Source: a virus (Duplodnaviria > Heunggongvirae > Uroviricota > Caudoviricetes). Taken from it: a stretch of DNA of 32,675 nt. Position numbers and translations under genes: made by a program. Location: positions 1 to 32,675 of the IMG/VR virus record IMGVR_UViG_2663763159_000003. One strand, 5' to 3'. Under the pieces are notes generated by a model. The model worked only from the letters and a program-made list of their open reading frames with translations. It was not told the DNA's origin and did not search any database. Positions 16,636 to 32,547 of this stretch are shown in pieces (position 1 is the stretch's first letter; each line of letters starts with the position of its first letter).

Positions 16636-16711
16636 TGGTGCTGGTTAACGGACTTGAACCGCTACCCATTCGCTTACAAGGCGACCGCTCTACCATTGGA
16701 GCTAAACCAGC
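16636..16711 (-). tRNA. tRNA-Thr(UGU)-like, 76 nt with encoded CCA
   Basis: Hand-folded cloverleaf: acceptor GCUGGUU/AACCAGC, D-arm GCUC-CAAUGGUA-GAGC, anticodon loop CUUGUAA, T-arm AGCGG-UUCAAGU-CCGUU. Confidence 0.6.
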
Positions 16712-16716
16712 ATATT

Positions 16717-16791
16717 TGGCGGGACAGCGTGGACTCGAACCACGATAAGAAGGTTAACAGCCTTCCGTAATGACCTTTATACGACTGACCC
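16717..16791 (-). tRNA. tRNA-Asn(GUU)-like, 75 nt, deviant D-arm (possibly degenerate)
   Basis: Anticodon arm GAAGG-CUGUUAA-CCUUC, T-arm CGUGG-UUCGAGU-CCACG, acceptor with one U-U mismatch, CCA encoded. Confidence 0.45.
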
Positions 16792-21537: not shown

Positions 21538-22245
21538 ATGGTTCAGAATGAAAAAGTGCGCAAAGAATTCGCCCAGCGGCTAGCGCAAGCCTGTAAAGAA
21601 GCTGGTCTTGATGAACATGGTAGGGGTATGGCCATAGCCCGTGCCCTTTCTCTTTCGTCCAAAGGCGTTAGCAAATGGTTTAATGCTGAGTCTTTACCGC
21701 GTCAGGAAAAAATGAATGCGCTTGCGAAATTTCTAAACGTTGATGTTGTTTGGCTTCAGCACGGCACTTCGTTAAATGGAGCGAATGATGAAGATACTCT
21801 TTCATTTGTTGGCAAATTAAAAAAAGGGTTAGTGCGCGTGGTTGGTGAGGCAATTCTTGGTGTTGATGGTGCCATCGAGATGACCGAAGAGCGCGATGGG
21901 TGGCTCAAGATTTATAGTGATGATCCAGATGCCTTTGGTCTTCGTGTGAAAGGAGACAGCATGTGGCCCAGAATAAAATCAGGAGAATATGTACTCATTG
22001 AGCCTAACACCAAAGTATTCCCGGGGGATGAGGTGTTTGTCAGAACCGTTGAAGGACACAACATGATCAAGATTCTTGGCTATGACAGAGATGGAGAATA
22101 CCAATTTACAAGCATCAACCAGGACCACAGGCCAATAACGTTACCTTATCATCAAGTAGCAAAGGTGGAGTATGTGGCTGGTATTCTGAAGCAATCTCGT
22201 CATCTGGATGACATCGAGGCAAGGGAGTGGCTGAAAAGTTTGTGA
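21538..22245 (+). CDS. cI: CI repressor (N-terminal HTH, C-terminal LexA/S24-like autopeptidase)
   Basis: 235 aa; C-terminal region with G.SM and K motifs typical of S24 peptidases; divergent from cro. Confidence 0.85.
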   Translation: MVQNEKVRKEFAQRLAQACKEAGLDEHGRGMAIARALSLSSKGVSKWFNAESLPRQEKMNALAKFLNVDVVWLQHGTSLNGANDEDTLSFVGKLKKGLVRVVGEAILGVDGAIEMTEERDGWLKIYSDDPDAFGLRVKGDSMWPRIKSGEYVLIEPNTKVFPGDEVFVRTVEGHNMIKILGYDRDGEYQFTSINQDHRPITLPYHQVAKVEYVAGILKQSRHLDDIEAREWLKSL

Positions 22246-22368
22246 CTTCAAGTACGCGACAAGCCCCGTCCTTCAGGGCGTGGAGGATGTCAAAATAACT
22301 TTAAATAACACACCACCAACATTTAACACATTGAATTAAAAAACCTACAATATTTGATGAGAGGCGTT

Positions 22369-22689
22369 ATGGAACCGGTCAAAATTAAACCATCTGTGGA
22401 TTATATTGAAACCTATGCGGACTTCGCTAGTTTTGCTCCACTACCGGGAGCGGAAAAAAATCTCATTTGTATACATTTTATCGCAAACAAGTCAATACCT
22501 GCGGTACTATCCCAAAATGATATACCAGATCAACCAGGTAGAGCGAATATGCAGATAGGCTCTGTAAATGAACTCAATCAGCAATGCACTGTGATAATGC
22601 CAATGGCACAACTAAAGGCTCTTCAAGAGAATATAGTTCTTCTTTTCGAACAATTAGAGGCACAAAACTCTAATGGAGCGAAGTCGTAA
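22369..22689 (+). CDS. Hypothetical soluble protein, first gene of the rex-slot cassette
   Basis: Start taken at MEPVK with GAGAGG RBS; stop overlaps next start (TAATG). Confidence 0.6.
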   Translation: MEPVKIKPSVDYIETYADFASFAPLPGAEKNLICIHFIANKSIPAVLSQNDIPDQPGRANMQIGSVNELNQQCTVIMPMAQLKALQENIVLLFEQLEAQNSNGAKS

Positions 22690-23372
22690 TGCAACAACCG
22701 GAAGAAGTAGGTGATTTAACTATTACTTACAAAACATCAAGTATTGTTAAACCACTGCAAGTTTCCCTGAATAACGTTAATACTCGCGATTTCATGATGT
22801 TCATGGAAACAGCAAAAGGTAATCTGTTTTCTACGCCTATTTCCTCTTATTCACCAAAAAACATGGTGGATGATGCGACCAATTCCCAGCTAACTGCTAC
22901 AATCGTAGATAAAGGAGGGGTTGCCGATTGTAAAGGACAATCTAATGTTATCCCACCGTACGAGGAAACTCCTATACAGGGAACCGCAATGTCCGATTTG
23001 AGCAGAAACGAAATACAGGCACTTCTGAAGGCAAATAAAGCTGAAGTGGATGCAGTGGCCTCAAAAATGCAGGCTGATATGGCCAAATGGCGTGAACTAA
23101 TGGCTTCAGATATAAAGGAGATGAAGCATTTAGTTGTTACTCAGCACGAACAAATCAACAGTCGTCTGGACATACAATCGAGTAGAATTGAGAGTGCCCT
23201 TGACTCCCAATCAAAAAAGATCGATGCAGCTCTTTCTGTTCAAGAGGCAAAGTTAGAAGGTAAGCTTAGTGATGTTAAGCTTGATATAATCAAATGGGCC
23301 CTTGGCTTGCCAGCATTAGCATTTACTGTATATAAAATCTACGGATTGCTCTCTGGAGTCTCAACCCCCTAA
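22689..23372 (+). CDS. Hypothetical tail-anchored coiled-coil membrane protein, second gene of the rex-slot cassette
   Basis: 227 aa; Gln/Ser/Lys-rich heptad-like region residues ~105-200; C-terminal hydrophobic helix IIKWALGLPALAFTVYKIYGLLSGV. Confidence 0.7.
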   Translation: MQQPEEVGDLTITYKTSSIVKPLQVSLNNVNTRDFMMFMETAKGNLFSTPISSYSPKNMVDDATNSQLTATIVDKGGVADCKGQSNVIPPYEETPIQGTAMSDLSRNEIQALLKANKAEVDAVASKMQADMAKWRELMASDIKEMKHLVVTQHEQINSRLDIQSSRIESALDSQSKKIDAALSVQEAKLEGKLSDVKLDIIKWALGLPALAFTVYKIYGLLSGVSTP

Positions 23373-23378
23373 TACACA

Positions 23379-23402
23379 CCCGGCCTCAGTGCCGGGTTTT
23401 CT
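23379..23402 (+). terminator. Rho-independent terminator ending the cI operon
   Basis: cccggcctcagtgccggg followed by tttt. Confidence 0.6.
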
Positions 23403-23822: not shown

Positions 23823-24095
23823 ATGTCCAGAAAAACAGAATTTAAAGGCACCGCAGCTTCTCGCCGTAGAGCTCGTCGTGCAAACCTGCAAAGTCAGGAG
23901 GCGATCAGCTCTGACAAACTACACAGGCCAACCCCTTCACGAGTGGTCTTACAATGCAAACGCAAACCAGTAATGAGAGCAGAAGTAATAACACTGACAA
24001 CGTTGACCAGAAAATATGAAGGCTCAACTTGTCTTCCAAATGTAGCCATTTACGCGGCAGGCTACAGGAAATCCAAACAGCTGACAGCAAGATGA
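23823..24095 (+). CDS. N-like antiterminator with arginine-rich motif
   Basis: Start at ATG 23823 with GGGAGG RBS; N-terminal GTAASRRRARRANLQ arginine-rich motif; position after pL/nutL. Confidence 0.7.
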   Translation: MSRKTEFKGTAASRRRARRANLQSQEAISSDKLHRPTPSRVVLQCKRKPVMRAEVITLTTLTRKYEGSTCLPNVAIYAAGYRKSKQLTAR

Positions 24096-24153: not shown

Positions 24154-24240
24154 ATGGAAGAAGAATTTGAAGAGTTCGAAGAGCATCCTCAGGATGTGAT
24201 GGAACAATACCAGGACTATCCGTATGACTGCGACTATTGA
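24154..24240 (+). CDS. Small acidic 28-aa ORF (λ orf28-like position)
   Basis: ATG with GAGGTGAG RBS; overlaps ral start; too short to judge. Confidence 0.3.
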   Translation: MEEEFEEFEEHPQDVMEQYQDYPYDCDY

Positions 24241-24424
24241 TAAGAATCAATGGTGTGGACAATTCAAGCGATGCAATGGATGCAAGCTGCAATCGGAATG
24301 CATGGTTAAGCCTGAAGAAATGTTTCCTGTAATGGAAGATGGGAAATATGTCGATAAATGGGCAATACGAACGACGGCAATGATTGCCAGAGAACTTGGT
24401 AAACAGAACAACAAAGCTGCCTGA
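24224..24424 (+). CDS. ral: Restriction alleviation protein Ral
   Basis: 66 aa, matches λ Ral as recalled. Confidence 0.8.
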   Translation: MTATIDKNQWCGQFKRCNGCKLQSECMVKPEEMFPVMEDGKYVDKWAIRTTAMIARELGKQNNKAA

Positions 24425-24650: not shown

Positions 24651-24821
24651 ATGCAACAGTTCGCTATTGCAGGGGCGGCATCGGTTCGCCCTTTCAACCC
24701 GATTTTATCGGTACAGCATTCACGAAAAAACATTTTAACCGGAGCAGACTTTAAACAACCAAGAATGAAAAGTTTGCTCGAAAAGCTTTGGGATATTTTG
24801 AAACAACAAGGCCGTCCATGA
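24651..24821 (+). CDS. cIII: CIII-like protein
   Basis: 56 aa starting MQQFAIAGA..., resembling the λ CIII N-terminus MQYAIAGW; AAGGAG RBS. Confidence 0.6.
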   Translation: MQQFAIAGAASVRPFNPILSVQHSRKNILTGADFKQPRMKSLLEKLWDILKQQGRP

Positions 24822-24902: not shown

Positions 24903-25214
24903 ATGATGATTCTGACTCTGAATGATAAGCGTGAAATATCGCAAATAATCGCAAGTTTTACTGATGAAGATTACGAGCGAATCAACAGTGAAGTTGATCG
25001 CCTCTGCAAACGTTGCGACCCAATAAGCGAAATGCTTCGCTCATATAAACCAGATGAACACACTAAGGACGCTATCGACTGGCTGGAAGATGATGACTGT
25101 AACTATCAGGAAAAAGCCGCTGAATGGTTCTGGGATGCAATAACCGAAAGAGTTAAGGCTGAATATGCCTTCGCAATATTTAAACGCAGACACATTTTTG
25201 GAGAAGCAGCATGA
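24903..25214 (+). CDS. Hypothetical acidic 103-aa protein upstream of recT
   Basis: ORF with AGGAG RBS; stop overlaps recT start; a 34-aa ORF at 24819..24923 partly overlaps its 5' end. Confidence 0.55.
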   Translation: MMILTLNDKREISQIIASFTDEDYERINSEVDRLCKRCDPISEMLRSYKPDEHTKDAIDWLEDDDCNYQEKAAEWFWDAITERVKAEYAFAIFKRRHIFGEAA

Positions 25215-26122
25215 GCAATATCGTTGAATTCGTTAAACAGCAGGAGCAGTTATTCTGCGGAGCATTGACTGAACAGACGGTGACATGGGCTAAGGAAAGC
25301 CAGTTTGCAATTCAGTATTTCCAGAAAAACGATTACCTGGCTAAAACAGCACTGGCAAATCCAACCAGCGCACAGAACGCCATCATCAATGTTGCGGCGA
25401 TCGGCATCACCTTAAACCCTGCAAGCAAACTGGCTTATCTGGTTCCGCGCGATGGCATGGTTTGCCTTGATATCAGCTATATGGGATTGCTCCATATTGC
25501 AATGGAGTCTGGTGTTATCTCATGGGGTCAGGCAAAACTTGTTCATGCTAACGATACCTATGAGTCAAACGGGCTTGATAAAGCACCAACCCATAAATAC
25601 AACGCCTTCGGTGATCGTGGTGATATCGTTGGCGTTTACTGCACAGTTAAGACGCCGGCAGGTGATTATCTAACGGAAGAGATGAGTCTGGCTGAAATTG
25701 AGGCTGTAAGGAAAACAAGCAAGGCAGCATTCAGCGATAAAGGACCATGGGTAAATCACTGGAATGAGATGGCGCGAAAGACGGTCGTAAAGCGTGCAAG
25801 CAAGTATTGGCCTAAGGCATCACGTCTTGATAGCGCTATTCACGTACTAAACGAAGAAGAAGGTGTATGGACTGAACCAGTTATGCCGCACAAATCAGAG
25901 GAAGATATCCGCGAAGATGAACGGAAACGCCAGCAGGAAATAACGGATAAAGCACAACTTCTTTGTGATGAAATGGCTCAGGCAGAAAACATGGATGATT
26001 TGAAGCGATATTTTGCAGAAGCATATCGCCTGACATCTGGAATGAAATTGCAGCAGAACGTACAAGCCATTTACGCAGAATGCAAAGCGAAACTGGAGGT
26101 TGCCAGTGAGCAAACTGTATGA
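25211..26122 (+). CDS. recT: RecT-family single-strand annealing recombinase
   Basis: 303 aa; GPWVNHWNEMARKTVVKRASKYWP resembles the RecT signature GPWVTHWEEMAKKTAIRR. Confidence 0.85.
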   Translation: MSNIVEFVKQQEQLFCGALTEQTVTWAKESQFAIQYFQKNDYLAKTALANPTSAQNAIINVAAIGITLNPASKLAYLVPRDGMVCLDISYMGLLHIAMESGVISWGQAKLVHANDTYESNGLDKAPTHKYNAFGDRGDIVGVYCTVKTPAGDYLTEEMSLAEIEAVRKTSKAAFSDKGPWVNHWNEMARKTVVKRASKYWPKASRLDSAIHVLNEEEGVWTEPVMPHKSEEDIREDERKRQQEITDKAQLLCDEMAQAENMDDLKRYFAEAYRLTSGMKLQQNVQAIYAECKAKLEVASEQTV

Positions 26123-26588
26123 AATTGCCAATGAATACGCAAAATTGATGGATTCAGATTTAGAACCAGAGATGATTGCTGACACAATAGAAGGCATGGA
26201 AGGAGAATTTACCGATAAAATAGAGCAACTTCTTTCCGTCATTAAAAATGAATCTGGTTATGCTGAACGCCTCAAGGAAGAGGCAAAGTCACTGAATGAG
26301 CGAGCCGCAGTAATTCAAAATAAGATTGAGAGCATCAAATCATATATAGCGTCATCGCTTGAAATGGTTGGCAAGAAAAAGATTCGAGCAGGTATTCACC
26401 AGGTAACAATCCGCAAACCGTCAGAAACTGTAGAAATCATCGACTCAAGCGCCCTTCCTCCTGAATACGTTGAGTTTGAAACGACAATTAAAGCCGACAA
26501 ACTGGCAATCAAACACCAACTAAAAGCAGGAATAAATATCCCCGGCGCTCAACTCAAAGTTGGGAAACCTTCACTTCTTATCAAATAA
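26100..26588 (+). CDS. Siphovirus Gp157-like protein
   Basis: 162 aa; coiled-coil N-terminal half; non-ATG start (TTG 26100 or GTG 26106) overlapping recT end. Confidence 0.55.
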   Translation: MPVSKLYEIANEYAKLMDSDLEPEMIADTIEGMEGEFTDKIEQLLSVIKNESGYAERLKEEAKSLNERAAVIQNKIESIKSYIASSLEMVGKKKIRAGIHQVTIRKPSETVEIIDSSALPPEYVEFETTIKADKLAIKHQLKAGINIPGAQLKVGKPSLLIK

Positions 26589-26599
26589 CGGTATCGACT

Positions 26600-26914
26600 A
26601 TGAAAAAGACTCCATGGGAGAAATGGGAAGTCGATTTCTTGCGCGAGGTAGCGGCGACAATGCCAGTTGAAGTTATCGCTGAAAAACTGGAAAGGACTGA
26701 AAAAGCAGTAATGGCGAAAGCAACAAGGATTGGCGCTGACATTGTTAGCCGACTTCGTGGAAGACGATGGACAAGAGCCGAAGTATCACTTTTCGGTAAG
26801 TTCTCCGCAGAAGAAATAGCAATTGCAACCTGCCGCTCAATTTATTCAGTAAGAGCTATGCGATACAAGCTAAAAAAACTCGATGAAGAAAGAGCAGGCA
26901 TACGAATAAATTAA
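26600..26914 (+). CDS. Hypothetical 104-aa protein (possible DNA-binding)
   Basis: ORF only. Confidence 0.55.
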   Translation: MKKTPWEKWEVDFLREVAATMPVEVIAEKLERTEKAVMAKATRIGADIVSRLRGRRWTRAEVSLFGKFSAEEIAIATCRSIYSVRAMRYKLKKLDEERAGIRIN

Positions 26915-26930
26915 CATGGAGTAATTAACA

Positions 26931-27212
26931 ATGAAGCTAAACATCGACCTTGGAAAATACGTTATTACCGGAACCAAACACGACCTGATTCTTAGTGAAA
27001 GAGGAATTATCAAAGAAGGCGAGAATGCAGGGAAAGAAACACTAAGTCGTATCGGTTATTACAGCAAGTTTGAGCATCTGGTTAAAGAGTTATGCAACCG
27101 TGAAATCCTGTTATCTCAGGCGCAGACACTACAGGATATTCAGCAGCATATCGAGACTTTAGGTGTATCACTTAGCACGGCTGTTGACCAGTTCGCGGAG
27201 AGTAAATCATGA
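26931..27212 (+). CDS. Hypothetical 93-aa protein
   Basis: ORF with GGAG RBS. Confidence 0.55.
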
Positions 27213-27376
27213 GAGGACTTGCATACAATCCCGGCATTCTTCCGGCAGAAATGATTATTCGCCAACGCGTAAAGCCAATGCCATCGAGAGAGGAATTGCT
27301 TAAGAGAAATTCTTTTCCATCAGTGAATCAAAACAAATATCTGAATTCGATGTGGCGCAAAGGAGGCAAGCAGTGA
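27209..27376 (+). CDS. Hypothetical 55-aa protein
   Basis: ATGA overlap with upstream stop; below ORF-track cutoff. Confidence 0.35.
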
Positions 27377-27627
27377 GTAATTCCGCACGACTACAGCTTG
27401 GTTTTTCACCGCTATCAAAAACTATCATGCTGGCAAAAATGCGCGATGTTGAAGGTGGACGTATGCGCGTTGGCAATGATCCAGGTCGTGATGTTACCAA
27501 TGAGGCTGCTCAATTGGTGTGGCGACTGGTCATGGCTGAAGGTGGTGAGATCGCGTGGGAACTTGATGATGGTTCTCGCATGGTGTTGAAGGCAGAGAAG
27601 CAGGAGACAACCAGTGAGCAAGATTGA
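27373..27627 (+). CDS. Hypothetical ~84-aa protein
   Basis: GTG start after AGGAGG RBS, overlapping upstream stop. Confidence 0.5.
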
Positions 27628-28108
27628 CTATCAGGCACTGCGTGAGGCGGCAGAGAAGGCAACGTGGGGAGACTGGGACTCATATAAACCACACCGTGGC
27701 GCACGTGGTTATGAGGTCCGACTAAGTAGTCAGGCCATTGCGCAACACGTTCTGAAAAACAACGCTGAATTTATTGCTGCCTTTAATCCAAAGATTGCTT
27801 TGGCACTACTGGATGAACGGGAAAGGAACCAGCAATACATCAAATCCCGCGACCAGGAGAACGAGGATATTGCACTAACGGTAGGGAAGTTGCGCGTTGA
27901 GCTTGAGGCAGAAAAACAGCGGGCAAAGGATCTATTTATGGAAAATGCTCGGCTTAAGTCAGGTATAGCCGGTCTGATACACCTCGGTATTCGATATGCA
28001 GATGTTGAGGTCATGAGAATTGCTGGAGATGCCCAGCTTTCTACCCCATGCACTGACAGCATCATAAACAGCATTGCAACAGGCATTCGCATCAAAGGAG
28101 GTGAGTAA
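27614..28108 (+). CDS. Ea22-like hypothetical protein
   Basis: 164 aa, GTG start; central coiled coil; family assignment by recall only. Confidence 0.5.
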   Translation: MSKIDYQALREAAEKATWGDWDSYKPHRGARGYEVRLSSQAIAQHVLKNNAEFIAAFNPKIALALLDERERNQQYIKSRDQENEDIALTVGKLRVELEAEKQRAKDLFMENARLKSGIAGLIHLGIRYADVEVMRIAGDAQLSTPCTDSIINSIATGIRIKGGE

Positions 28109-28284
28109 TGCGTGTGGCATGTATCGGCTTGTTACCTTACCCGACTCGTTTTTGGGCTTCTGCGCTAATTGCAAAGCCGCATGTCCTGATGGCTGACAAC
28201 ATCATCCCGGCACCAAAGCGCCGCCATACCGGTATTGCATCGGCACGACGAGCAGCAAAGAAACGCAGGAGAGCAAAACGATGA
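28108..28284 (+). CDS. Small basic 58-aa hypothetical protein
   Basis: TAATG and ATGA overlaps with neighbours; Arg/Lys-rich C-terminus. Confidence 0.35.
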   Translation: MRVACIGLLPYPTRFWASALIAKPHVLMADNIIPAPKRRHTGIASARRAAKKRRRAKR

Positions 28285-28469
28285 AAAACCGTAAAGCAAA
28301 GATTCTGTTAGTTCGTAGAAACGCTCCTGGCGTCTGGCAGTGGGTGAGACTCAGCAACCGACGGGTGGGGTTAATGAAACATTACGGGATGATGGATTAT
28401 GGTTTTTGCAAAAAGCCCAGCGCGGCGCAAAACCGCTGGAAAAACCACTTGCGTACTAAAGGAGAGTGA
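28281..28469 (+). CDS. Hypothetical 62-aa protein
   Basis: ORF only, coupled to neighbours. Confidence 0.45.
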   Translation: MKNRKAKILLVRRNAPGVWQWVRLSNRRVGLMKHYGMMDYGFCKKPSAAQNRWKNHLRTKGE

Positions 28470-28470
28470 T

Positions 28471-28680
28471 ATGGCTATTGCCGCAAGTTACACCATGCAT
28501 CTCTATTGTGACTGCCGCCAGTGTACGGAAGGTGTATATCCAGTGCCAGACTTCGGAGAGTATATCGGCACGTCATGGGCTGGTTGTGCAAAAGAGGCGC
28601 GTAAGGATGGCTGGCGAATAAGCAAAGACAAAACACGTGCTTTTGCGCCTGGGCATAAAGTTTTGAGGATTAACAAATGA
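28471..28680 (+). CDS. Hypothetical Cys-rich 69-aa protein (possible zinc ribbon)
   Basis: ATG 28471 after GGAGAG RBS; CDC..C motif. Confidence 0.5.
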   Translation: MAIAASYTMHLYCDCRQCTEGVYPVPDFGEYIGTSWAGCAKEARKDGWRISKDKTRAFAPGHKVLRINK

Positions 28681-29555
28681 CCACTATTACCAGAGAACAA
28701 GCTCTGAAAATTATTGAGGCAGCCGATGAGATTATTAGTGCGCTTGCCGGAACTAACGAGGATGTTCACCCTGGTAGCGATAACATGCTACGCCTGTGGG
28801 ATGACCTGAATGACCGTTACGCGCCGCCGGAAGTTGTGCGTGAGCTGGCACGGATTGCTCTGGCATCGCTGGAAGCAGAGCCGATAGGTTTCCGTTGCAG
28901 GCGCAATGATAACCTTGGTGACTGGAGTTACGTATATCATCGAGAGCCAGATGATTTTGAGCGCAAACATTTAGTGATAGAGGGCATTTACGCCGCCCCT
29001 CCAGCGCCAGTAGTACCGGAAGAAAAACCAATGCCTAATCCTCTTAGCATGTACGCGGTTGATGCTGTTGCCGCTATTGCAGAGGTGAGAGGCTGGAACG
29101 CCTGCCGCGCTGCCATGCTTCATAGTGCCGAACCTGCAAGTAATCATGAAGAGTTGCCGCTTGATTATCTCCAAGGTCAAAAAGATGGTCTTGAATGGGC
29201 TGCGCAGCTTGCAGAAGCAAATCACCCACAAACTGGCGACTGGCTTTACGATGACCCGCTGGAGCTGGCTAAAGCTATCAGAAAAGGTCCTGACATGCCC
29301 GAATTCGATGGACCAACTCCGGTGACTCCGGATAGTTGGATAAGCTGTAGTGAGCGAATGCCAGAAAAGAACCAGAACGTACTTATTTCGGTGAATTTCG
29401 ATAGTGATCTGGTTGAACCGCTAATATGCTCCGCACGCTATACAGGAAGCACATTCCGGCGAGGAGAAGCAACGATTAAGCCGGGTAATGGTATTGAGCA
29501 GGCAACTCACTGGATGCCTCTACCAGAACCGCCTCAGGAGGTTAACCGTGGCTAA
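28677..29555 (+). CDS. DUF551-domain protein
   Basis: 292 aa; C-terminal ...CSERMPEKNQ...ATHWMPLPEPP typical of DUF551 prophage proteins as recalled. Confidence 0.65.
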   Translation: MTTITREQALKIIEAADEIISALAGTNEDVHPGSDNMLRLWDDLNDRYAPPEVVRELARIALASLEAEPIGFRCRRNDNLGDWSYVYHREPDDFERKHLVIEGIYAAPPAPVVPEEKPMPNPLSMYAVDAVAAIAEVRGWNACRAAMLHSAEPASNHEELPLDYLQGQKDGLEWAAQLAEANHPQTGDWLYDDPLELAKAIRKGPDMPEFDGPTPVTPDSWISCSERMPEKNQNVLISVNFDSDLVEPLICSARYTGSTFRRGEATIKPGNGIEQATHWMPLPEPPQEVNRG

Positions 29556-29655
29556 CCTGCAACTTGCCGTTAAAGGTGAATAACAATCCTCGCACTCGCG
29601 GGGATTTCTTTTATCTGAACTCGCTACGGCGAGTTTTGTTTTATGGAGATGATAA

Positions 29656-29823
29656 ATGCACTTCCGAGTCACAGGTGAATGGAATGGAGAACCATTCAAC
29701 AGAGTTATCGAAGCAGAGAACATCAACGACTGTTATAACCACTGGATGATATGGGCGCAGATAGCACATGCAGACGTAACCAATATTCGAATTGAAGAAC
29801 TGAAAGAACACCAAGCCGCCTGA
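29656..29823 (+). CDS. Small 55-aa hypothetical protein upstream of xis
   Basis: ATG after GGAG RBS; stop lies in the loop of the following terminator. Confidence 0.45.
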   Translation: MHFRVTGEWNGEPFNRVIEAENINDCYNHWMIWAQIAHADVTNIRIEELKEHQAA

Positions 29824-29836
29824 TGGCGGTTTTTTC
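29814..29836 (+). terminator. Rho-independent terminator upstream of xis
   Basis: gccgcctgatggcgg followed by tttttt. Confidence 0.6.
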
Positions 29837-29862
29837 TTGCGTGTAATTGCGGAGACTTTGCG

Positions 29863-30081
29863 ATGTACTTGACACTTCAGGAGTGGAACGCACGCCAGCG
29901 ACGCCCAAGAAGCCTTGAAACAGTTCGTCGATGGGTACGCGAGTGCAGGATATTCCCTCCTCCGGTTAAGGATGGAAGAGAGTATCTGTTCCACGAATCA
30001 GCGGTAAAGGTTGACTTAAATCGACCAGTAACAGGTAGCCTTTTGAAGAGGATCAGAAATGGGAAGAAGGCGAAGTCATGA
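29863..30081 (+). CDS. xis: Excisionase
   Basis: 72 aa, matches λ Xis as recalled. Confidence 0.95.
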   Translation: MYLTLQEWNARQRRPRSLETVRRWVRECRIFPPPVKDGREYLFHESAVKVDLNRPVTGSLLKRIRNGKKAKS

Positions 30082-31129
30082 GCGCCGGGATTTACCCCCT
30101 AACCTTTATATAAGAAACAATGGATATTACTGCTACAGGGACCCAAGGACGGGTAAAGAGTTTGGATTAGGCAGAGACAGGCGAATCGCAATCACTGAAG
30201 CTATACAGGCCAACATTGAGTTATTTTCAGGACACAAACACAAGCCTCTGACAGCGAGAATCAACAGTGATAATTCCGTTACGTTACATTCATGGCTTGA
30301 TCGCTACGAAAAAATCCTGGCCAGCAGAGGAATCAAGCAGAAGACACTCATAAATTACATGAGCAAAATTAAAGCAATAAGGAGGGGTCTGCCTGATGCT
30401 CCACTTGAAGACATCACCACAAAAGAAATTGCGGCAATGCTCAATGGATACATAGACGAGGGCAAGGCGGCGTCAGCCAAGTTAATCAGATCAACACTGA
30501 GCGATGCATTCCGAGAGGCAATAGCTGAAGGCCATATAACAACAAACCCTGTCGCTGCCACTCGCGCAGCAAAATCAGAGGTAAGGAGATCAAGACTTAC
30601 GGCTGACGAATACCTGAAAATTTATCAAGCAGCAGAATCATTACCATGTTGGCTCAGACTTGCAATGGAACTGGCTGTTGTTACCGGGCAACGAGTTGGT
30701 GATTTATGCGAAATGAAGTGGTCTGATATCGTAGATGGATATCTTTATGTCGAGCAAAGCAAAACAGGCGTAAAAATTGCCATCCCAACAGTATTGCATG
30801 TTGATGCTCTCGGAATATCAATGAAGGAAACACTTGATAAATGCAAAGAGATTCTTGGCGGAGAAACCATAATTGCATCTACTCGTCGCGAACCGCTTTC
30901 ATCCGGCACAGTATCAAGGTATTTTATGCGCGCACGAAAAGCATCAGGTCTTTCCTTCGAAGGGGATCCGCCTACCTTTCACGAGTTGCGCAGTTTGTCT
31001 GCAAGACTCTATGAGAAGCAGATAAGCGATAAGTTTGCTCAACATCTTCTCGGGCATAAGTCGGACACCATGGCATCACAGTATCGTGATGACAGAGGCA
31101 GGGAGTGGGACAAAATTGAAATCAAATAA
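30059..31129 (+). CDS. int: Integrase (tyrosine recombinase)
   Basis: 356 aa, matches λ Int as recalled; start overlaps xis end. Confidence 0.95.
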   Translation: MGRRRSHERRDLPPNLYIRNNGYYCYRDPRTGKEFGLGRDRRIAITEAIQANIELFSGHKHKPLTARINSDNSVTLHSWLDRYEKILASRGIKQKTLINYMSKIKAIRRGLPDAPLEDITTKEIAAMLNGYIDEGKAASAKLIRSTLSDAFREAIAEGHITTNPVAATRAAKSEVRRSRLTADEYLKIYQAAESLPCWLRLAMELAVVTGQRVGDLCEMKWSDIVDGYLYVEQSKTGVKIAIPTVLHVDALGISMKETLDKCKEILGGETIIASTRREPLSSGTVSRYFMRARKASGLSFEGDPPTFHELRSLSARLYEKQISDKFAQHLLGHKSDTMASQYRDDRGREWDKIEIK

Positions 31130-31217
31130 TGATTTTATTTTGACTGATAGTGACCTGTTCGTTGCAACAAATTGATAAGCAATGCTTTTTTATAATGCCA
31201 ACTTAGTATAAAAAAGC
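31130..31217. other. attL: λ P' arm and 15-bp core (reverse complement of GCTTTTTTATACTAA at 31203..31217) joined to host B arm
   Basis: Sequence gattttattttgactgatagtgacctgttcgttgcaacaaattgataagcaatgcttttttataatgccaacttagtataaaaaagc matches the λ attP P' arm as recalled, then diverges into host sequence. Confidence 0.85.
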
Positions 31218-31263: not shown

Positions 31264-32547
31264 GTGAACACATTTTCAGTTTCCCGTCTGGCGCTGGCAT
31301 TGGCTTTTGGCGTGACGCTGACCGCCTGTAGCTCAACACCGCCCGATCAACGTCCTTCTGATCAAACCGCGCCTGGTACCTCTTCACGCCCGATTCTGTC
31401 GGCAAAAGAAGCGCAGAATTTCGATGCTCAACACTATTTTGCATCCCTGACACCAGGTGCGGCAGCGTGGAATCCTTCCCCAATTACCTTGCCTGCGCAA
31501 CCTGACTTTGTTGTCGGCCCGGCGGGTACTCAAGGTGTAACGCATACCACGATTCAGGCGGCGGTAGATGCGGCAATTATCAAGCGTACCAACAAGCGCC
31601 AGTATATTGCCGTGATGCCTGGTGAGTATCAGGGAACGGTATATGTCCCTGCCGCTCCGGGTGGAATTACTCTGTACGGTACAGGTGAAAAACCGATTGA
31701 TGTGAAGATTGGGCTTTCCCTTGATGGGGGCATGAGCCCTGCCGACTGGCGTCACGACGTCAACCCGCGCGGCAAATATATGCCAGGTAAACCAGCGTGG
31801 TATATGTACGATAGCTGCCAGAGCAAACGCAGCGACAGTATCGGTGTTCTCTGCTCTGCGGTCTTCTGGTCACAAAACAATGGCCTGCAACTGCAAAACC
31901 TGACCATCGAAAACACGCTGGGTGATAGCGTAGATGCGGGTAACCATCCGGCGGTGGCACTGCGTACTGATGGTGACCAGGTACAGATTAACAACGTTAA
32001 CATTCTCGGTCGTCAGAACACCTTCTTTGTCACCAATAGCGGTGTGCAGAACCGTCTGGAAACGAATCGTCAGCCGCGTACGCTGGTGACCAACAGCTAT
32101 ATTGAAGGGGATGTGGATATCGTTTCTGGTCGCGGCGCAGTGGTGTTCGATAACACCGAATTCCGCGTGGTGAACTCCCGTACCCAGCAAGAAGCGTATG
32201 TGTTTGCACCGGCTACGCTGTCCAACATTTACTACGGTTTCCTCGCCGTAAACAGCCGTTTCAATGCTTCCGGTGATGGCGTGGCGCAACTGGGCCGCTC
32301 GCTGGATGTTGATGCCAATACCAACGGTCAGGTGGTGATCCGTGATAGCGCCATCAACGAAGGTTTTAACACGGCGAAACCGTGGGCCGATGCGGTGATT
32401 TCCAATCGTCCATTCGCAGGTAACACCGGCAGTGTTGACGATAGCGACGAAATACAACGCAATATGAATGACACTAACTACAACCGCATGTGGGAATACA
32501 ATAACCGCGGCGTGGGTAGCAAAGTGGTTGCAGAGGCGAAGAAGTAA
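31264..32547 (+). CDS. ybhC: Host lipoprotein YbhC (pectinesterase-like / acyl-CoA thioesterase)
   Basis: 427 aa, GTG start, lipobox LTACS, parallel beta-helix-like repeats; known neighbour of attλ. Confidence 0.8.
   Translation: MNTFSVSRLALALAFGVTLTACSSTPPDQRPSDQTAPGTSSRPILSAKEAQNFDAQHYFASLTPGAAAWNPSPITLPAQPDFVVGPAGTQGVTHTTIQAAVDAAIIKRTNKRQYIAVMPGEYQGTVYVPAAPGGITLYGTGEKPIDVKIGLSLDGGMSPADWRHDVNPRGKYMPGKPAWYMYDSCQSKRSDSIGVLCSAVFWSQNNGLQLQNLTIENTLGDSVDAGNHPAVALRTDGDQVQINNVNILGRQNTFFVTNSGVQNRLETNRQPRTLVTNSYIEGDVDIVSGRGAVVFDNTEFRVVNSRTQQEAYVFAPATLSNIYYGFLAVNSRFNASGDGVAQLGRSLDVDANTNGQVVIRDSAINEGFNTAKPWADAVISNRPFAGNTGSVDDSDEIQRNMNDTNYNRMWEYNNRGVGSKVVAEAKK

Follow-up and report, generated by a model that had tools for sequence, protein, structure and literature searches.

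Ten genes between gp157 and xis

The virus record IMGVR_UViG_2663763159_000003 of IMG/VR, a stretch of 32,675 nucleotides (nt) that we analysed at its full length and refer to as the window, carries a train of ten open reading frames (ORF1 to ORF10) between the end of its gp157 gene (26588) and the start of xis (29863). All ten lie on the + strand, encode 55-292 amino acids (aa) and together take up 96% of the DNA. At 100% identity, the window matches the chromosomes of Escherichia coli strain 50579417 and of four other clinical isolates; a sixth isolate matches it at 99.8%, and the integration site, which adjoins ybhC (starting at 31264), is att-lambda. The element hosting the train is a lambdoid prophage whose head genes are of the HK97 type and whose tail genes are of the lambda type.

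An earlier note on this DNA had described at least nine ORFs of 55 to 292 aa in a position between the recombination module and xis, packed with 1- or 4-nt stop/start overlaps (ATGA, TAATG, GTGA) and ending at a terminator just before xis. This anatomy holds, with ten ORFs found and RecT and Gp157 as the recombination module, as do the four products that the note had singled out: an Ea22-like protein (Ead_Ea22, 115.6 bits against a cut-off of 27), a DUF551 protein (77.5 bits against a cut-off of 22), a very basic 58-aa peptide (isoelectric point (pI) 12.0, with 15 Lys or Arg and a single Asp or Glu) and a Cys-rich 69-aa protein (4 Cys, 2 His). Non-ATG starts exist as well, although 'several' was generous for what proved to be only two, ORF4 and ORF5, both with GTG.

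Read in order, the nine junctions measure +16, -4 (ATGA), -4 (GTGA), -14, -1 (TAATG), -4 (ATGA), +1, -4 (ATGA) and +100 nt, that is, three ATGA, one GTGA and one TAATG junction, one 14-nt overlap and three gaps, of 1, 16 and 100 nt. GGAG-type Shine-Dalgarno (SD) motifs stand 5-10 nt upstream of nine of the ten starts, the exception being ORF1, and the start codons used here are those of the Prokaryotic Genome Annotation Pipeline (PGAP), bar that of ORF9. Tight packing was considered as the mark of a special coupled unit and rejected, because stop/start overlaps are as common elsewhere in the prophage (6 of 9 junctions in the train against 18 of 43 in the remainder; Fisher p = 0.27). The translational coupling put forward in the earlier note is drawn from the overlaps only and needs qualifying: nine of the ten genes also have their own SD motif, and such overlaps occur prophage-wide.

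ORFs of at least 55 aa on the + strand cover 99% of the region; in 300 dinucleotide shuffles such ORFs averaged 30% and never exceeded 62%. For each ORF the alleles present in 168 related loci were compared, and the pooled ratios of nonsynonymous to synonymous polymorphism (pN/pS) were 0.01-0.41 in all eight ORFs with allelic variants, the variable sites being concentrated at third codon positions; these eight ORFs are under purifying selection. ORF5 and ORF9 have no full-length ungapped alleles and hence fall outside the pN/pS set, and their coding support comes instead from strong Pfam matches and from homologues that align from residue 1. Given a coverage beyond that of the shuffles, the pN/pS values, the kept frames and the Pfam matches, all ten ORFs are best read as genes.

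Doubt could still fall on ORF3 (27209-27376, 55 aa), ORF6 (28108-28284, 58 aa, with an arginine/lysine-rich C-terminus) and ORF7 (28281-28469, 62 aa, pI 11.6), which at 55-62 aa and very basic composition might be chance frames in conserved linker DNA. ORF6 and ORF7 have no Pfam model, their equivalents are unannotated in phage 933W, and ORF6, the weakest coding case, offers only 9 variable sites among its alleles. Yet all three combine an SD motif with a precise stop/start overlap (ATGA between ORF2 and ORF3; TAATG at ORF6, preceded by AAGGAGGTGA; ATGA at ORF7), all three are annotated by PGAP, and each has a PHROG family of matching length (phrog_13831 at E = 1e-41 for ORF6, phrog_1380 at E = 5e-39 for ORF7). 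Their pN/pS values are 0.41, 0.27 and 0.39, respectively. The ORF6 frame is kept in 18 of 18 distinct protein variants, through in-frame 21-nt deletions and ATG/GTG start changes, while ORF7 variants of 58-64 aa retain the termini MKNRKAK... and ...AAQNRWKNHLRTKGE and keep their frame through a hypervariable core. We therefore consider it very improbable that any of the three arose as a chance frame. Among the ORF7 homologues (L009-L168), the first 7 and last 15 residues are near-identical and the middle 35-40 residues are replaced by unrelated sequences of similar length; a faint likeness of ORF7 to an SH3-like GW repeat is not significant (E = 0.088).

Fixed and exchanged cassettes

Per-gene presence was scored in 80 IMG/VR loci anchored on ORF1, which are the closest relatives of ORF1. 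There, recT and gp157 are present in all 80 loci, ORF3 in 79, ORF10 in 53 and ORF2 in 35, followed by ORF4 and a lambda-type xis (14 each), ORF8 (7), ORF7 (6) and ORF6 (3). Among 80 loci anchored on ORF8, 20 contain ORF3 and only 2 the recT of this prophage. Breakpoints in DNA-level coverage coincide with gene junctions, and the exact 3.2-kb arrangement recurs in 6 of 5,426 complete E. coli genomes, with pieces of it in 3,723. ORF1 and ORF3 stay together with recT-gp157, whereas ORF2 and ORF4 to ORF9 are swapped at gene junctions. Genes found in the variable slots of sister phages are of the Lar-like (restriction-alleviation), Ea8.5-like, HNH endonuclease, ASCH (by annotation), DUF4752 and DUF7739 types, alongside many unknowns and one weak Mom-like match (24.2 bits, below the cut-off of 27.1).

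Labels attached to the public homologues of these genes are inconsistent and mostly unsupported (Gally, L002, 2501-2815; Louie, L003, 2832-3113 and 4722-5510): ORF1 appears as 'Anti-RecBCD protein 1' or 'transcriptional regulator, D5-like', ORF2 as 'replication initiation protein' and the DUF551 protein as 'Lar-like restriction alleviation protein'.

ORF2 (26931-27212, 93 aa; GGAG SD motif; pN/pS 0.14) matches DUF5405 (PF17399, 26.4 bits against a cut-off of 21.6) and phrog_154 (E = 5e-31) and is an optional cassette. ORF4 (27373-27627, 84 aa; pN/pS 0.17), a rare one, matches DUF7446 (PF24233, 66.5 bits); its GTG start, identical in PGAP, follows AAGGAGG by 6 nt and lies in the GTGA overlap. 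Between them, the near-fixed ORF3 matches DUF2737 (PF10930, 106.9 bits) and, at 75% identity, is the homologue of P22 orf56. Literature searches on DUF2737, DUF5405 and DUF7446 returned nothing useful, and those on the functions of the P22 ea genes only unrelated papers.

ORF5 (27614-28108, GTG start, 164 aa) combines an Ead/Ea22-like N-terminus with a coiled coil, matching PF13935 (IPR025153) over residues 2-132 (E = 3.3e-33). It is 67% identical to EaD of phage Gally and 51% identical to residues 1-103 of lambda Ea22, where the alignment stops and the C-terminal part differs. The C-terminal domain of lambda Ea22 is a dimeric alpha-beta domain solved by nuclear magnetic resonance (PMC10834534), and a PDB sequence search with ORF5 gave no match to it. 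The gene is itself mosaic: a 110-nt core (27801-27911) is kept at 83-89% identity in lambda, 933W and P22 and its flanks differ, which makes this core an intragenic recombination joint in the coiled-coil part.

A similar internal mosaic is seen in ORF9 (28677-29555, 292 aa, pI 4.6), a protein of the EaA type that follows ORF8 through an ATGA overlap. Its DUF551 part (PF04448, residues 220-287) is 92.6% identical to 933W L0065 and 35% identical to P22 EaA, and its N-terminal part is variable. The RefSeq/PGAP model of the gene encodes 193 aa from a start at 28974 and leaves 293 nt unannotated (28677-28973). Homologues in Louie and Gally align from residue 1, with 45% and 37% identity, and the 292-aa reading corrects the RefSeq gene model.

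Downstream of ORF9, a terminator scan of the + strand identified two tandem intrinsic-terminator-like hairpins with T runs at 29585-29606 and 29617-29636 (folding free energies of -13.1 and -11.9 kcal/mol; z-scores of -5.5 and -4.1); because they separate ORF9 from ORF10, ORF10 is not coupled to the train. ORF10 (29656-29823, 55 aa; phrog_676, E = 2e-39; pN/pS 0.17) is the homologue of lambda orf55 (lambdap35), with 98% identity to NP_597778. For lambda Orf55 a T7-Gp2-like fold has been proposed (PMC8614690). A third terminator-like hairpin with a T run (29813-29832, + strand, -13.0 kcal/mol) overlaps the ORF10 stop codon and ends 31 nt before xis.

Identity to lambda is 98.9% over 29580-31217, starting exactly at the first hairpin and running through orf55, xis, int and the att region; the remainder of the prophage differs from lambda in its immunity region, its RecT-type recombination module and its HK97-type head genes. 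The segment 29577-29653 is 100% identical in 933W, and 29772-29838 is 98-100% identical in 933W and P22. These hairpin-bearing segments are all that 933W and P22 keep of this stretch, at 98-100% identity, most of orf55 being missing and the flanks differing. Both segments look like conserved linkers where modules are exchanged. Such a pattern, with breakpoints at gene boundaries, short conserved linkers common to otherwise different phages, and intragenic mosaics in the Ea22-like and DUF551 genes, differs in no principle from the mosaic 'module/cassette' model of lambdoid phage genomes that is reportedly owed to Susskind and Botstein and to Hendrix, Juhala and colleagues, and is a textbook example of it.

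A RecT-linked helix-turn-helix protein and a small Cys/His protein family

ORF1 (26600-26914, 104 aa, pI 10.0) begins 11 nt after gp157, is linked to recT and gp157 in 80 of 80 loci, has a pN/pS of 0.01 and belongs to a family restricted to Enterobacteriaceae. It carries a tandem helix-turn-helix (HTH) of the sigma-70-region-4/LuxR-like type, visible as an internal repeat (W-x2-E ... IA-x2-T/L-x-RS-x2-SV) that recurs a third time in 152-aa homologues, which also match Pfam Sigma70_r4_2 (PF08281). An AlphaFold (AF2) model, with a predicted local distance difference test (pLDDT) score of 82, contains two three-helix units, and the family profile finds the NarL DNA-binding domain in the PDB (E = 0.0023). 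When the model was compared with the PDB by Foldseek, the matches were all to generic double-HTH DNA binders and fell short of significance (E >= 0.14).

The position of ORF1, just after the recombinase genes, parallels that of Abc1 in P22, whose family members also carry Sigma70_r4_2 (PF08281). Alignment of the ORF1 profile with the P22 Abc1 family profile (hhalign) gave a probability of 51% (E = 1.5e-4) over 39 columns, corresponding to one HTH unit, and the probability against the single Abc1 sequence was 14%. Abc1 has been described as an HTH protein that, on expression, sets off P4-dependent cell death and shows counter-defence phenotypes (bioRxiv 10.1101/2023.04.06.535777). We read ORF1 as a putative DNA-binding protein that may work like Abc1, at the position of Abc1, its membership of the Abc1 family being unproven. 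Both its HTH nature and its P22 Abc1 position are newly described details.

One could go further and regard ORF1, perhaps with ORF2 and ORF3, as components of the RecT/Gp157 module itself, an Abc1/Abc2 analogue that adapts RecBCD or regulates the module. The near-invariant company of ORF1 and ORF3 with recT-gp157 while the downstream genes vary, the 11-nt spacing, the resemblance of ORF1 to Abc1 in size, position, HTH type and Pfam family, and the place of P22 orf56, the ORF3 homologue, directly after abc2 would all fit this, as would the label 'Anti-RecBCD protein 1' (Abc1-like) that the annotators of Gally gave to their ORF1 homologue. However, BLASTP detects no similarity of ORF1 or ORF2 to P22 Abc1 or Abc2, no Abc2 counterpart was found, and the profile match spans a single HTH unit at 51% probability. 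The 80 loci are, moreover, the closest relatives of ORF1, and part of the linkage may stem from an ancestor that these loci had in common not long ago. ORF2 is an optional gene, and ORF3 also keeps company with other modules, as the ORF8-anchored loci indicate. Such a role in the module is possible and we hold it only tentatively.

ORF8 (28471-28680, 69 aa; pN/pS 0.07) belongs to a family of different breadth. An exhaustive profile search collected 402 clusters at E <= 1e-3, and almost all of the 150 clusters listed are stand-alone proteins of about 60-110 aa; a Pfam scan of ten longer matches yielded one HTH_17 fusion, eight proteins without a Pfam family and one false positive, a 697-aa matrix metalloproteinase with fn2 repeats, which was discarded. 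In an alignment of 76 members, C13 is conserved in 99%, C18 in 83% and C15 in 67%, with C59 appearing in members that lack C15, and 97% have His or Cys at position 62; 68 of the 76 have at least four Cys/His at ligand positions. This conservation points to ORF8 as a probable zinc-binding small protein, using C13, C15, C18 and H62. Its AF2 model (pLDDT 82) matches only uncharacterised phage proteins in BFVD, from Klebsiella, Burkholderia, marine and actinobacterial phages. The family is widespread in phages, unnamed, and has neither a Pfam model nor a structural relative, which is likewise a newly described detail. A 93-aa reading of ORF8 (start 28399) was set aside in favour of the 69-aa one because family members and phrog_926, which matches exactly the 69-aa version, begin at that methionine. 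Assignment to the TraR/lambda Orf73 type, with a DksA/TraR C4 zinc finger between two long helices, was also rejected.

It is a rather unlikely prospect that the ORF8 family (about 400 clusters at 50% identity, from enterobacterial temperate phages, jumbo phages and actinophages) could constitute a new class of host-takeover or anti-defence effector, and that ORF1 could be the functional counterpart of Abc1, a DNA-binding cofactor coupling phage recombination to host or satellite transcription control.

A probable accessory part of the early-left operon

On the + strand, the order of genes is N, ral, cIII, recT, gp157, the ten-ORF train, xis and int. The series begins with a gene for an N-like antiterminator (23823-24095; PF25694, N_peptide, 112 bits; arginine-rich N-terminus), continues through ral (24224-24424; Pfam Ral, 160 bits), a cIII-like gene (24651-24821; PHROGs match to cIII), recT (25211-26122; Pfam RecT, 112 bits) and the gp157 or Mu-Gam-like gene (26106-26588 in PGAP; Sipho_Gp157, 132 bits; Mu Gam-like in PHROGs), whose longest ORF begins at a TTG at 26100, and ends beyond the train with xis (29863-30081) and int (30059-31129), whose products share 98.6% and 98.9% identity with Xis and Int of lambda. 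A cI-type repressor gene (21538-22245, + strand) lies upstream of the N-like gene. From this order it follows that the train occupies the distal part of the early-left (pL) operon. A scan for sigma-70-like promoters found no match within 26600-29836, and only 4 in 7.3 kb where 12 were expected. Given this lack of internal promoter-like sites, the N-family antiterminator upstream and the three hairpins before xis and int, we infer that the train is expressed as delayed-early, polycistronic RNA in a pL- and N-dependent manner.

We consider it highly probable that the train makes up the distal and non-essential accessory section of the pL operon in this lambdoid prophage at att-lambda, the counterpart, in function and position, of lambda's exo-xis region and of the ea region of P22. 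In the lysogen, the cI-type repressor would hold pL off and the train would be silent. On induction or infection, transcription from pL, made terminator-resistant by the N-like antiterminator, would pass through N, ral, cIII, recT, gp157, the train and the three terminator hairpins into xis and int. The ten cistrons would be translated from a single mRNA, mostly from their own SD motifs, with termination-reinitiation at the six overlaps possibly aiding joint expression. Their products would be small accessory proteins acting early on the host or on phage development, and the individual roles we propose, all of low confidence, are these: ORF1 may be a two-HTH DNA binder accompanying RecT/Gp157 as Abc1 accompanies Erf in P22; ORF5 may form an Ea22-type coiled-coil oligomer, lambda Ea22 being a protein that favours lysogeny; ORF8 would be a small, probably zinc-binding protein and ORF9 an EaA-type DUF551 protein; and ORF10, as lambda Orf55, is a proposed RNA polymerase binder. 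As regards evolution, the train is a mosaic of cassettes that lambdoid phages exchange at the junctions of genes and at short linkers of conserved sequence.

The exo-xis ('bin') region of lambda and Stx phages resembles the train in its place, on the strand of the pL operon with recombination genes on one side and xis on the other, and in consisting of small, tightly packed, non-essential genes. Published work describes that region as pL-transcribed and dispensable; it keeps the host from initiating replication and from dividing, and it alters the balance between lysis and lysogeny (PMC10789677, PMC8614690, PMC10834534). With lambda itself the prophage has in common an Ea22-type gene (51%, N-terminal 103 aa), orf55 (98%), the same flanking hairpins and the same xis-int. 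In other respects lambda differs. The conserved block orf60a-orf63-orf61-orf73 of the lambda/Stx region (PMC8614690) and ea8.5 are absent from the train, in which no Pfam match of the DUF1317, DUF1382 or TraR/DksA type was found; RecT and Gp157 stand in place of Exo, Bet and Gam; the Ea22-like protein is without the lambda C-terminal domain; and seven of the ten train genes have no lambda counterpart. In tblastn with the ten ORFs, lambda was matched only at ea22 and orf55, and blastn found no other lambda segment upstream of 29580.

P22 offers a parallel in gene order. Its ea region (abc1, abc2, orf56, eaE, eaF, eaD, eaI, eaA, eaG and eaC) has, in this sequence, a recombinase, an HTH protein (Abc1, here ORF1), orf56 (ORF3), an EaD/Ea22-like protein, an EaA/DUF551 protein and xis in common with the prophage, and the nearest phage records are P22-like relatives, namely Lederbergvirus 683R2 and Gally, together with Louie, which has no genus-level taxonomy. 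Unlike P22, the prophage yielded no counterparts of Abc2, EaE, EaF, EaC or the aI RNA, its virion genes are HK97/lambda-like, and ORF1 and Abc1 are related at the level of the HTH domain only, if at all. To the L0063-L0069 region of 933W the train is linked by the ORF6-ORF8 block (90.8% DNA identity, ORF8 corresponding to the C-terminal 69 aa of L0068), by the DUF551 end of ORF9 and by the identical linker/terminator segments. What sets 933W apart is its exo-bet-gam genes, its orf60a/63/61 block and another variant of Ea22; of orf55 it has no more than a fragment, and ORF1 to ORF4 are missing from it.

Several points weigh against placing the train in the pL operon and assigning roles by analogy. 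Dependence on pL and N, like translational coupling, is read from anatomy; a search for nutL did not locate it, and the one boxA consensus match that the window contains lies near cro on the other strand. The HTH call for ORF1 has marginal statistics (PDB E = 0.0023; no Foldseek match below E = 0.14), and zinc binding by ORF8 is deduced from conservation only. Just ORF5, in its N-terminal half, and ORF10 have studied or modelled lambda counterparts. The replication-initiation block, the dispensability and the lysis-lysogeny phenotypes are known only from experiments with lambda and Phi24B (PMC10789677), and because orf60a-orf63-orf61-orf73 is absent here, they are not simply transferable.

The earlier note had called this region a known hot spot for anti-defence and host-takeover genes, with most products lacking an assigned function. 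As to variability, the comparison that it proposed does reveal variable genes (ORF2 and ORF4 to ORF9), but ORF1 and ORF3 are near-invariant with recT-gp157, and ORF10 sits in a lambda-type orf55-xis-int module. As to function, Pfam indeed offers only DUFs and PHROGs 'unknown function', although lambda orf55 (ORF10) and P22 orf56 (ORF3) had gone unrecognised. An anti-defence or host-takeover role found no support: because no train gene matches a characterised protein of this kind, that role is suggested by position, and the neighbourhood makes it plausible. Searches of NCBIfam and PADLOC matched none of the ten proteins, PDB sequence searches with all ten (concatenated into three queries) found nothing significant, Rfam recorded nothing in the train region, and peptide strings of ORF1, ORF2, ORF3, ORF8 and ORF10 are absent from the supplements of an accessory-gene screen paper. 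The note's interpretation is thus partly supported, right in outline but generic.

A rival reading would make the train above all an arsenal against host defence, in which the small proteins mostly inhibit host immunity (restriction, RecBCD, abortive infection and others) in the manner of Ral, Gam, Abc2, Lar or Ocr. The presence of ral in the same operon, the Lar-like genes and weak Mom-like match in sister-phage slots, the Lar-like annotation of the Louie DUF551 homologue, the fast turnover of cassettes, and the phenotypes of counter-defence and of triggering cell death that a screen (bioRxiv 10.1101/2023.04.06.535777) recorded for P22 Abc1, which stands where ORF1 stands here, are consistent with this. 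Against them stand the Pfam, PHROGs, NCBIfam and PDB searches, which linked no ORF of the train to any anti-defence protein that has been characterised, the very strong purifying, not diversifying, selection on ORF1 and ORF8, and the ties of the studied lambda relatives Ea22 and Orf55 (the latter by modelling) to developmental control and RNA polymerase, not immunity (PMC8614690, PMC10834534). We regard an arsenal of this kind as unlikely.

Far less probable still is a reading of the train, or of ORF10 by itself, as a moron or defence cassette that the repressed prophage expresses to benefit its host. ORF10 was considered as a moron since it is bracketed by terminator hairpins, and prophages often carry lysogen-expressed genes, of which the rex-position genes upstream may be an example. 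But no promoter-like site precedes ORF10 or lies within the train, PADLOC gives no defence-protein match, orientation and position match the delayed-early genes of lambda, and ORF10 is lambda orf55.

Read as an accessory part of the pL operon, the train changes no concept: all lambdoid phages carry such an accessory early region, and this one is a further example of an ordinary, well-known kind of phage region, in which the unusual combination of known cassette families is new. Its value is that of a catalogue, separating fixed RecT/Gp157 partners (ORF1, ORF3) from freely swapped genes, and its main points are the RecT-linked HTH protein ORF1, the ORF8 family, the corrected ORF9 model and the conserved terminator-bearing linkers. 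ORF1 and ORF8 are the most sensible targets, prior experiments having centred on the lambda/Stx-phage gene set; should either act on RecBCD, RNA polymerase or defence, it would extend the short list of known 'dark matter' functions.

Three further features of the prophage deserve mention. A 103-aa acidic ORF (24903-25214, + strand; phrog_3486, no Pfam match) overlaps the recT start by ATGA and is part of the block conserved with recT-gp157-ORF1. Between cI and pL, two co-oriented genes (22354-23372) occupy the position of lambda rexA/rexB; one encodes 111 aa without a family and the other 227 aa (phrog_14825) with a coiled coil and a hydrophobic C-terminus, and a terminator-like hairpin is visible after them at about 23378-23400. 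They are candidate exclusion or defence genes of the kind expressed in a lysogen. Finally, the only Rfam matches in the window are two tRNA genes, tRNA-Thr(TGT) and tRNA-Asn(GTT), at 16636-16791 on the - strand, between the Q antiterminator gene and the holin gene.

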